Assembly: GCA_000002445.1 (NCBI GenBank)
Contig: CH464491.1
Location: 864,001 to 928,000 of the forward strand
Length of the DNA: 64,000 nt
Reading direction: 5' to 3'
Origin: Trypanosoma brucei
Lineage: Eukaryota
The stretch's first letter is position 1, and the number at the start of each line of letters is the position of its first letter. The translations under genes and the position numbers were made by a program. The notes under the pieces are model-generated. The model ran no database searches, was not told the origin of the DNA, and was given only the letters and a program-made list of their open reading frames with translations. Positions 23,846-24,751 of the stretch are shown piece by piece.

Positions 23846-24751
23846 TCAAGTAATTTTTCTGTAGATAAAAAACGGTGCCTCATCGTTCCAGTCGGCTGTC
23901 AGGTGAACATAAGATACAAGCTTCATTTGGCTCCCAACCAAAAGATTTTCATGCAAGGGGCGAGATGTTACCACACACAACAAAGCAGGCAAAGACACCA
24001 CGAGCTCCGTCAACCTCTTCATCAACTCGTCATCAAACATCCACGAGTGGGTGAATATAACATTGACATTTTCTTCAACCATTCTCCGCGCACAATTGAC
24101 AAAGTCATCTTGTATAAAGATAGCCTGCTTGCCGGAAAAGTTCTCTGGAAAATATGACAGGGCCTTAGCAAAAGCCGTTGTCGCAGCGCGATGTCGGGAG
24201 GGTATAACTTCAACGCCTACAACCTTCCTGCAGTTGGTCTCAGCCAGTAACTGAAGGCACACATTTCCAACGCCACTACCTATATCACAAAAAACAGCGC
24301 TTTCCTCAATAGAAACTACTGAATTATCAGTTGTATTTGCAAGGTGATCTCCCGTTACACAGCGGCGGAGCTGAGGTACAATGTGAGATGTCCACATTTT
24401 GCGCACACCGTCAAAGTCGATAACGCCATTCTGAGCGAAAACATTCGGCTTCACAGTGAGAATTTCTTCACCTGCCTCCAATTGGCCGCGTTCTTCGTAT
24501 TGGTCGTTCAAATGTTCATATATCCGCTGATATATTGCCTTGAAATTCCCTGGGGAAAATAACAAACTGCTCGATTTTCGTACAGCAATAAAAGAGTGTG
24601 TCTGTTTATTGTTTAAGTACACCAACAGAGCTCCAATAGCACTACCCACTCCAACAGACATGGCGGCAAAACGTAGCCCCCTAGTTCTCAACAATAGGTA
24701 ACTAAATGCAAGAAATGAGCATCCGGCAGCTGCAGCGTAGAAAAAGGTCAT
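23846..24751 (-). CDS. DOT1-fold (histone H3K79/K76-type) SAM-dependent methyltransferase paralog with hydrophobic N-terminal segment, 301 aa
   Basis: ATG at 24749-24751. Motif I FCDIGSGVGNVCLQLLAETNCRKVVGVE (about nt 24210-24295) is near-identical in pattern to human DOT1L [28 protein letters not shown]. Motif II-like IFIQDDFVN. D2-like VIFTHSWMFDDELMKRL versus DOT1L [21 protein letters not shown]. The first 48 aa are strongly hydrophobic (MTFFYAAAAGCSFLAFSYLLL...ALLVYL). Confidence 0.78.
   Translation of the reverse strand: MTFFYAAAAGCSFLAFSYLLLRTRGLRFAAMSVGVGSAIGALLVYLNNKQTHSFIAVRKSSSLLFSPGNFKAIYQRIYEHLNDQYEERGQLEAGEEILTVKPNVFAQNGVIDFDGVRKMWTSHIVPQLRRCVTGDHLANTTDNSVVSIEESAVFCDIGSGVGNVCLQLLAETNCRKVVGVEVIPSRHRAATTAFAKALSYFPENFSGKQAIFIQDDFVNCARRMVEENVNVIFTHSWMFDDELMKRLTELVVSLPALLCVVTSRPLHENLLVGSQMKLVSYVHLTADWNDEAPFFIYRKIT

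Follow-up and report, generated by a model that had tools for sequence, protein, structure and literature searches.

Does Trypanosoma brucei carry a third DOT1 methyltransferase besides DOT1A and DOT1B and, if so, is chromatin what the enzyme acts on? The question arises within a 64,000-nucleotide stretch of T. brucei DNA (contig CH464491.1 of assembly GCA_000002445.1, positions 864,001 to 928,000; hereafter the window), where re-translation of positions 23846..24751 (minus strand) gave a complete open reading frame (ORF) of 301 amino acids plus stop codon, with an ATG start. ORFs overlapping it on the opposite strand were short and unsupported. An initial annotation of the locus had proposed an additional DOT1-like protein, encoded on a chromosome other than those of DOT1A and DOT1B, with a hydrophobic N-terminus and a replaced catalytic asparagine. 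We find that the ORF is Tb927.11.3200 on chromosome 11, the known third DOT1-domain gene of T. brucei. Its product is, on balance, best explained as a membrane-anchored methyltransferase of a DOT1 subfamily that acts on a non-histone substrate and possibly faces the mitochondrial intermembrane space.

The identity of the gene follows from existing records. Over its full length, the 301-residue product is 100% identical to T. brucei brucei TREU927 XP_828402.1 (EAN79290.1; UniProt Q386J1), a record titled 'hypothetical protein, conserved' to which UniProt has automatically given the name 'Histone-lysine N-methyltransferase, H3 lysine-79 specific'. Supplemental Table S1 of Staneva et al. 2021 has a row that pairs 'DOT1' with Tb927.11.3200 and Q386J1, and the same table gives DOT1A as Tb927.8.1920 (Q581Z0) and DOT1B as Tb927.1.570 (Q4GZF2); the tagging primer from that study, ATGACCTTTTTCTACGCTGCAG, matches the start of the ORF (PMC8559703). 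The proposed location away from the DOT1A and DOT1B chromosomes was therefore correct (Tb927.11.3200 as opposed to Tb927.8.1920 and Tb927.1.570, with XP_828402.1 on a 5.26-Mb contig). So was the proposal of an additional protein, whose gene and UniProt identifiers differ from those of both DOT1A and DOT1B, although it is not a discovery: a 2020 review notes that 'a third DOT1 ortholog' was later identified and its table has an entry 'DOT1 putative' for each of T. brucei, T. cruzi and Leishmania (PMC7468196). The existence of a third T. brucei DOT1 gene is thus already known and catalogued, and the gene is uncharacterized. Several recent papers on trypanosome DOT1 still speak of 'two paralogs', and we found no functional study of Tb927.11.3200 in the searchable literature, including under DOT1C together with Trypanosoma or under Q386J1.

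We then asked how firmly the protein belongs to the DOT1 family. The Pfam DOT1 hidden Markov model (HMM; PF08123) reached 60.3 bits, where the curated cut-off is 23 (E = 2.5e-16, residues 146-269), well above threshold for a gene that is neither DOT1A nor DOT1B, and all other methyltransferase families in the Pfam scan of the 301-residue protein stayed under their cut-offs. Against PDB sequences, phmmer returned human DOT1L (E = 3.6e-8), the 227-residue chain 9ne1_A (7.4e-8) and yeast Dot1p (5e-3). The close likeness of motif I and post-I to DOT1L that had first drawn attention to the locus was recovered in the phmmer output as the aligned segment DIGSGVGNVCLQLLAETNCRKVVGVE, as was the collinearity of motif II (DDF against GDF) and D2 (VIFTHSWMFDDEL) with their DOT1L counterparts.

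The two blocks predicted to bind S-adenosylmethionine (SAM) map, like all features of the protein given below, to the minus strand. Motif I and post-I occupy 24194..24295 and comprise D156-x-G158-x-G160-x-G162-N163, then G179 and E181, then P184-S185-R186. Motif II occupies 24095..24115 (residues 213-219). In alignment with DOT1L, residues D156, G158, G160, G162, E181 and D216-F217 correspond to D161, G163, G165, G167, E186 and D222-F223, the last pair making the adenine contact in DOT1L. An AlphaFold2 model based on a 43-sequence family alignment had a mean predicted local distance difference test (pLDDT) score of 88.5 and a predicted template modelling score of 0.78. When it was compared to the PDB with Foldseek, DOT1 proteins made up all 50 of the matches listed, so that the model is a DOT1-type class I methyltransferase, nearer to DOT1 structures than to other methyltransferases. 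The closest structure was 9ne1, with 187 of 202 residues superposed at 2.2 Å. Profile matches and modelled fold together show Tb927.11.3200 to belong to the DOT1 fold family, with a predicted SAM-binding site that is intact and strictly conserved, and it is almost certainly a distinct third DOT1 paralogue.

Within that family, Tb927.11.3200 has its own circle of relatives. A word-indexed search retrieved 59 of them; orthologues of about 300 residues came from Trypanosoma, Leishmania, Leptomonas, Lotmaria, Novymonas, Angomonas and Strigomonas, with a further named member from Phytomonas, and the more distant relatives were 280-480 residues long. One relative was found in the MMETSP transcriptome of the ciliate 'Platyophrya', where it may be contamination. 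A profile search of 1.84 billion cluster representatives gave 26 matches at E ≤ 1e-30, 237 at ≤ 1e-10 and 1,692 at ≤ 1e-3, with a score gap from 1e-45 to 1e-27, after which other DOT1-like proteins followed. All 43 aligned subfamily members matched PF08123.

Conservation in the family was read from two alignments, A1 and A2, a column being called conserved if it was invariant or at least 90% identical. In motif I, F154, D156, G158, G160, G162, N163 and Q167 were conserved; D156, G158, G160, G162, N163, Q167, G179, S185 and R186 were invariant in both alignments, and E181 and P184 of post-I were invariant in A1 and at least 90% in A2. Motif IV contributed F233, H235, S236, W237, M238, F239 and D240, the C-terminus D287, W288, N289, F294 and Y297, and D216 of motif II was nearly invariant. 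Apart from the conserved blocks, subfamily members shared 33-58% sequence identity. The string HSWMFDD was present in none of the 122 non-family DOT1-like representatives examined, which carried CSTCF, VNN or INN types instead.

Upstream of the SAM-binding motifs lies a conserved block specific to the subfamily (24419..24499, residues 85-111; columns Y85, G89, E95, T99, F105, Q107 and G109). It is closed by Q-x-G-V, which occupies the place of the canonical T-Y-G-E (motif X, with Y-G-E in canonical DOT1 proteins); the register was taken from members with short linkers and from P0095, a metagenomic protein described below. Between motifs X and I, the linker or insert (24302..24418, residues 112-150, delimited from alignment A1 and the upstream segments) is variable. 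Trypanosomatids have a long one and distant members a short or different one, and the pLDDT of the AlphaFold2 model drops around residues 131-150.

Searched with the family profile, human DOT1L scored 2e-13, 9ne1 7.5e-8 and Dot1p 6e-7, whereas T. brucei DOT1A (8FJM) reached an E-value of only 0.014 in a match confined to motif I. The weak DOT1A match points to an independent lineage and not to a recent copy of DOT1A or DOT1B, and we rejected the latter origin on these E-values (2e-13 for DOT1L versus 0.014 for DOT1A). A prokaryotic origin was likewise rejected, as none of 185,579 prokaryote species genomes scanned with two signature peptides held a relative. These comparisons show Tb927.11.3200 as the founding member of a separate, tight DOT1 subfamily, as defined by alignment. 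Its hallmarks are the invariant H-S-W-M-F-D of motif IV, P-S-R in post-I, D-W-N near the C-terminus and a basic, acid-free N-terminus with one or two hydrophobic helices.

Two observations concern the margins of the subfamily. P0095, a 246-residue protein from a Joint Genome Institute metagenome, carries E-Y-V-P-S-R-H and M-C-S-W-C-F-D-D, starts with MWRR and has a hydrophobic N-terminus. It is an intermediate linking the HSWMFDD subfamily with other DOT1-like proteins, and it suggests that the combination of anchor and DOT1 domain arose before the kinetoplastids did. Distant members from environmental assemblies (L001, 3001-4266; L002 and L003, both 3001-3960) lie in compact same-strand gene arrays with spacers of 50-400 bp, a gene organization that is kinetoplastid-like.

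Does the altered active site still point to a working enzyme? Motif IV, or D2 (24020..24067, residues 229-244, VNVIFTHSWMFDDELM), reads THSWMFDD where DOT1L has VNNFAFGP, with H235 at the position of DOT1L N241, S236 at N242 and F239 at F245. The replacement of the D2 asparagine reported in the initial annotation is therefore real, but as an argument for a different function it has limited force: in place of N241, TbDOT1A has a serine (Ser218) and TbDOT1B an alanine (Ala197), both enzymes being active histone methyltransferases, and DOT1L N241A still makes H3K79me2 (Frisbie et al. 2024, PMC10951340). In Tb927.11.3200 the canonical Asn-Asn and the Y-G-E of motif X are both missing, with H235-S236 and Q-N-G109-V in their places. 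DOT1A carries CAKS, and neither Asn-Asn nor Y-G-E is universal among active histone DOT1 enzymes (PMC10951340).

The distinctive trait, to judge from the alignments, is the whole invariant H-S-W-M-F-D(-D) block and not the replacement of a single asparagine. Because this block is invariant despite 33-58% identity elsewhere, it would represent a functional active site specific to the subfamily. Also counted toward activity were D156, G158, G160, G162, E181, F239, W288 and Y297, all invariant or nearly so. Tb927.11.3200 is thus likely to be catalytically active, using SAM for N-methylation and most probably with protein lysine as the acceptor. A reading as a protein arginine methyltransferase (PRMT), based on the resemblance of HSWM to the SEWM of the PRMT double-E loop, was dropped; its support was a weak motif I match (E ~0.7).

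Whether the substrate is a nucleosome depends on parts of DOT1 that lie outside the catalytic motifs. In DOT1L, loop 273-286 and the C-terminal helix 319-331 are required for contacts with the nucleosome and ubiquitin; LpDot1 of Legionella has neither element, does not methylate histones and methylates SFPQ at K518 (bioRxiv 10.64898/2026.01.11.698932). In Tb927.11.3200, motif VI (23957..23977, residues 259-265; VVTSRP versus VSSKP in DOT1L, with S263 invariant) is followed by C-terminal strands (23855..23902, residues 284-299) that carry D287-W288-N289, F294 and Y297, of which W288 and Y297 are general to DOT1-like proteins. From P265/L266 of motif VI to W288 there are 22 residues, compared to 33 from P271/F272 to W305 in DOT1L, a spacing that implies that the Arg-anchor loop (DOT1L 273-286) is missing. 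Since the protein ends 4 residues past Y297, it also has no counterpart of the C-terminal helix.

A basic DNA-binding region is absent as well, the N-terminus being hydrophobic and not a basic tail, so that none of the three nucleosome-contacting elements looked for (Arg-anchor loop, C-terminal helix, basic region) was found. The N-terminal regions of DOT1A and DOT1B are basic, and that of DOT1A weakly binds DNA (PMC10951340). The comparison shows the catalytic core of Tb927.11.3200 as a minimal DOT1 core that lacks the nucleosome-binding additions of DOT1L. Its substrate is probably non-nucleosomal, and the automatic label of an 'H3 lysine-79 specific' histone methyltransferase is probably wrong.

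In place of a basic tail, the protein begins with a putative anchor (24605..24748, residues 2-49). The hydrophobic N-terminus described at the outset was evident in Kyte-Doolittle 19-residue windows, which peaked at residues 3-21 (1.75) and 28-46 (1.91), and in the AlphaFold2 model, which has helices at residues 2-21 and 23-49 with the basic turn RTRGLR between them. The first acidic residue is residue 79, and 8 lysines or arginines precede it. Nearly all complete family members keep the hydrophobicity of this region and not its sequence, G40 being nearly invariant. Distant members have a single Gly/Ala/Ser-rich hydrophobic segment after a basic, acid-poor stretch (for example MLRRTVPRAMSF.., MYRRLFSKFARPSSF.. 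and MWRRPGVRAAV..); starts seen ahead of the Gly/Ala/Ser-rich stretch in distant members are MLRR.., MYRRLFSKFARP.. and ..RFFTPY. In three distant members the extension reaches 120-140 residues, and its initial basic segment ends in (L/I/V)R(F/C)FTP(Y/F).

By composition and motif inspection, and not by a targeting or transmembrane predictor, the N-termini of the distant members resemble bipartite mitochondrial signals, in that a start like that of a presequence precedes a stop-transfer segment, and an R-3 processing site in their extensions is possible. Conservation of the anchor makes it quite likely that Tb927.11.3200 itself is held in a membrane. With YFP (yellow fluorescent protein) at its N-terminus, the protein was undetectable in bloodstream forms even though the construct had integrated correctly (Staneva et al. 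2021, PMC8559703); this would be expected if the tag masked an N-terminal signal, and other causes are possible.

The anchor is easily lost from databases through the choice of start codon. In the window, the first ATG is closely preceded by a polypyrimidine tract and an AG, and the region before Met31 is conserved across genera, which supports use of that ATG. The T. b. gambiense entry P0001 has 278 residues, starts at Met31 and is flagged 'LOW QUALITY PROTEIN'; it also has seven extra residues, KALFFVI, inserted between E149 and E150 shortly before motif I. For Leishmania, T. theileri and T. rangeli, too, several entries use an internal Met codon as the start, so that the anchor is lost. Such differences in annotation hide the N-terminal feature.

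How, then, do anchor and minimal core fit together? In the explanation that we favor, the N-terminal helices would tether the methyltransferase to a membrane, and the minimal DOT1 core would act with SAM on one or more non-histone substrates. If basic residues stay inside, as the positive-inside rule predicts, a single helix with its basic N-terminus inside and a hairpin of two helices with its basic turn inside would both place the catalytic domain on the same outer face; at the mitochondrial inner membrane that face would be the intermembrane space, where SAM should be freely available. The earlier suggestion of a non-histone or membrane-associated enzyme fits the predicted features, as the anchor is conserved, the nucleosome-binding elements are missing and the nearest structure is 9ne1, which we infer to be LpDot1.

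We place the protein in mitochondria only tentatively, with the inner membrane, and a domain facing the intermembrane space, as its most likely site there. A bolder version, which we consider rather unlikely as it stands, would make the HSWMFDD subfamily the first organellar branch of DOT1, restricted to eukaryotes (so far kinetoplastids and protist sequences), anchored in the inner membrane and methylating a respiratory or carrier protein in place of chromatin. Trimethyl-lysine reportedly occurs in the cytochrome c of Crithidia and Euglena, and we know of no enzyme responsible for it in these organisms; that cytochrome c is the substrate of Tb927.11.3200 is nevertheless a very long shot.

Several observations weigh against this explanation. 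In RNA interference target sequencing, Tb927.11.3200 falls into class 1-1-1-1, with no loss of fitness in any of four experiments (PMC8559703), so its function is dispensable in culture, and no TrypTag localization was listed for it as of June 2021 (PMC8559703). The gene identifier was absent from the searched supplementary text of a mitochondrial importome, a mitoproteome compilation, a hyperLOPIT dataset and the TrypTag paper, texts that may be incomplete for a protein that may be scarce, but that lend a mitochondrial site no support. It was also absent from that of a differentiation proteome, which is uninformative given possibly incomplete text. In trypanosomatids no basic residue precedes the first hydrophobic helix; such an N-terminus is not a classical presequence and would suit a signal anchor of the endoplasmic reticulum (ER) or the mitochondrial outer membrane too. 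Finally, with a histidine in place of N241, the enzyme could work by another chemistry.

In the main alternative to an inner-membrane site, a signal anchor would hold the protein in the ER, in the secretory pathway or in the outer membrane of mitochondria, with its domain in the cytosol or an organelle lumen and a non-histone protein as substrate. Such an anchor is compatible with the trypanosomatid first helix, which starts at residue 2-5 with basic residues only after it (RTRGLR, TPRAFR), and with the missing identifier in the mitochondrial proteome and importome texts. We nonetheless judge it unlikely, since the 15-140-residue basic, acid-poor extensions of distant members (MLRR.., MYRR.., ..RFFTPY) fit mitochondrial bipartite signals better and a positive-inside hairpin in the ER would turn the domain toward the lumen, for which no SAM supply is established.

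A chromatin enzyme is harder to reconcile with the core. This would be a third histone methyltransferase, modifying H3K76 or some other lysine of the nucleosome, whose N-terminal helices might tie it to the inner nuclear membrane, and it would account for the match to Pfam 'Histone methylation protein DOT1', the H3K79-specific UniProt name, a motif I and post-I unusually near those of human DOT1L, and the conservation of W288 and Y297, which align with lysine-channel residues of DOT1L. Set against these are the missing 273-286 loop and C-terminal helix, the membrane-type N-terminus where DOT1A and DOT1B have a basic DNA-binding tail, the non-histone activity of LpDot1 as the inferred closest structure, and the fact that di- and trimethylation of H3K76 are already assigned to DOT1A and DOT1B (PMC7468196, PMC8559703). 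We therefore regard it as improbable. That the methyl acceptor at the membrane is not a protein but a small molecule or the head group of a lipid seems more improbable still.

Least probable of all is a catalytically dead DOT1-fold protein serving as a SAM sensor or structural subunit. Changes in both the Asn-Asn of motif IV and the Y-G-E of motif X would be expected of such a protein, as would the lack of a fitness phenotype, yet its SAM-binding residues and altered motif IV stay invariant at 33-58% identity, pointing to selection on an active site, and the active DOT1A and DOT1B likewise deviate at motifs X and IV.

What could matter most immediately is correction of the H3K79 histone methyltransferase label on Tb927.11.3200. 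If the mitochondrial, non-histone explanation were true, it would take the DOT1 family outside chromatin in eukaryotes, as LpDot1 did for a bacterial effector. It would also explain the failed N-terminal tagging and make C-terminal tagging and non-histone substrates the direction for later work. With no fitness phenotype in culture, the protein is not an obvious drug target.

The surroundings of the gene are those of a trypanosome chromosome. Long ORFs lie on the minus strand as far as 31797, and from 40971 onward they lie on the plus strand, with a divergent strand switch at 31800-40970 and a change of sign in GC skew near 36 kb, the layout of a trypanosome polycistron start region. Neighbors in the window include NOG1, a peroxisomal-type ABC half-transporter, a kinase, Der1, a metacaspase, a CCT subunit, a 4,681-residue ORF and a family-A DNA polymerase; neither tRNA genes nor Rfam families were found anywhere in the 64 kb. 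Adjoining the DOT1-like gene downstream is a 1,688-residue ORF (17969-23035, minus strand) with a faint WD40 match in Pfam. From gene order, it is most likely Tb927.11.3190, a DDB1- and CUL4-associated factor (DCAF) reported as a substrate adaptor of the cullin-4-type ligase TbCul-D and showing a nucleolar 'fibrillarin-like' pattern in TrypTag supplementary data.

On the other side, the 5.9 kb between the DOT1-like gene and the metacaspase gene (24752-30642) held no convincing ORF of at least 110 residues. This interval includes a G+C-rich part at 26-28 kb (GC 0.549, AT skew 0.26) and presumably consists of long untranslated regions or else holds a small gene missing from the annotation, for example Tb927.11.3210, which would be expected here. 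Beyond the strand switch, the 4,681-residue ORF (42939-56984, plus strand) is one that we take to be a dynein heavy chain, and a 1,676-residue protein with family-A DNA polymerase and 3'-5' exonuclease domains (58295-63325, plus strand) is probably a mitochondrial POLI-type kinetoplast DNA polymerase.

Finally, we compared Tb927.11.3200 to the systems that it most resembles. With DOT1L and Dot1p it shares the Pfam family and fold, a very similar motif I and post-I, and collinear motifs II, IV and VI and C-terminal W...Y. It differs from them in lacking the register of the helical N-terminal domain, the Arg-anchor loop, the C-terminal helix and the basic DNA-binding region, in having Q-x-G-V and not Y-G-E at motif X and H-S and not N-N at motif IV, and in what is predicted to be a membrane anchor in place of nuclear targeting. 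DOT1A (PDB 8FJN/8FJM) and DOT1B belong to the same genome and fold (Foldseek E = 1.6e-8) and are also non-canonical at the motif IV asparagine position. However, they are encoded on other chromosomes, share 15-17% identity with Tb927.11.3200 in structural alignment, and are nuclear proteins with basic N-termini and a zinc beta-hairpin, unlike the hydrophobic helices seen here.

In architecture, the proposed enzyme recalls human ANTKMT and ATPSCKMT (FAM173A/B), mitochondrial seven-beta-strand lysine methyltransferases that are anchored in the inner membrane by an N-terminal helix and modify a membrane or carrier protein. These belong to a different methyltransferase family, the mitochondrial site of Tb927.11.3200 is only predicted, and no sequence or fold match to either protein stood out in the structural comparisons (Foldseek and superposition).

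The nearest counterpart in structure is a bacterial one. PDB 9NE1 is described as a 'bacterial DOT1L methyl-transferase', and LpDot1 of Legionella pneumophila (lpp3025) is a secreted effector that acts in the host nucleus (bioRxiv 10.64898/2026.01.11.698932). Sequence relatedness between 9ne1 and Tb927.11.3200 is modest (E = 7.5e-8), and both LpDot1 and Tb927.11.3200 do without the DOT1L 273-286 loop and C-terminal helix. LpDot1 has no membrane anchor, whereas Tb927.11.3200 combines a putative N-terminal anchor with an extra block at residues 85-105 and an HSWMFDD motif IV.

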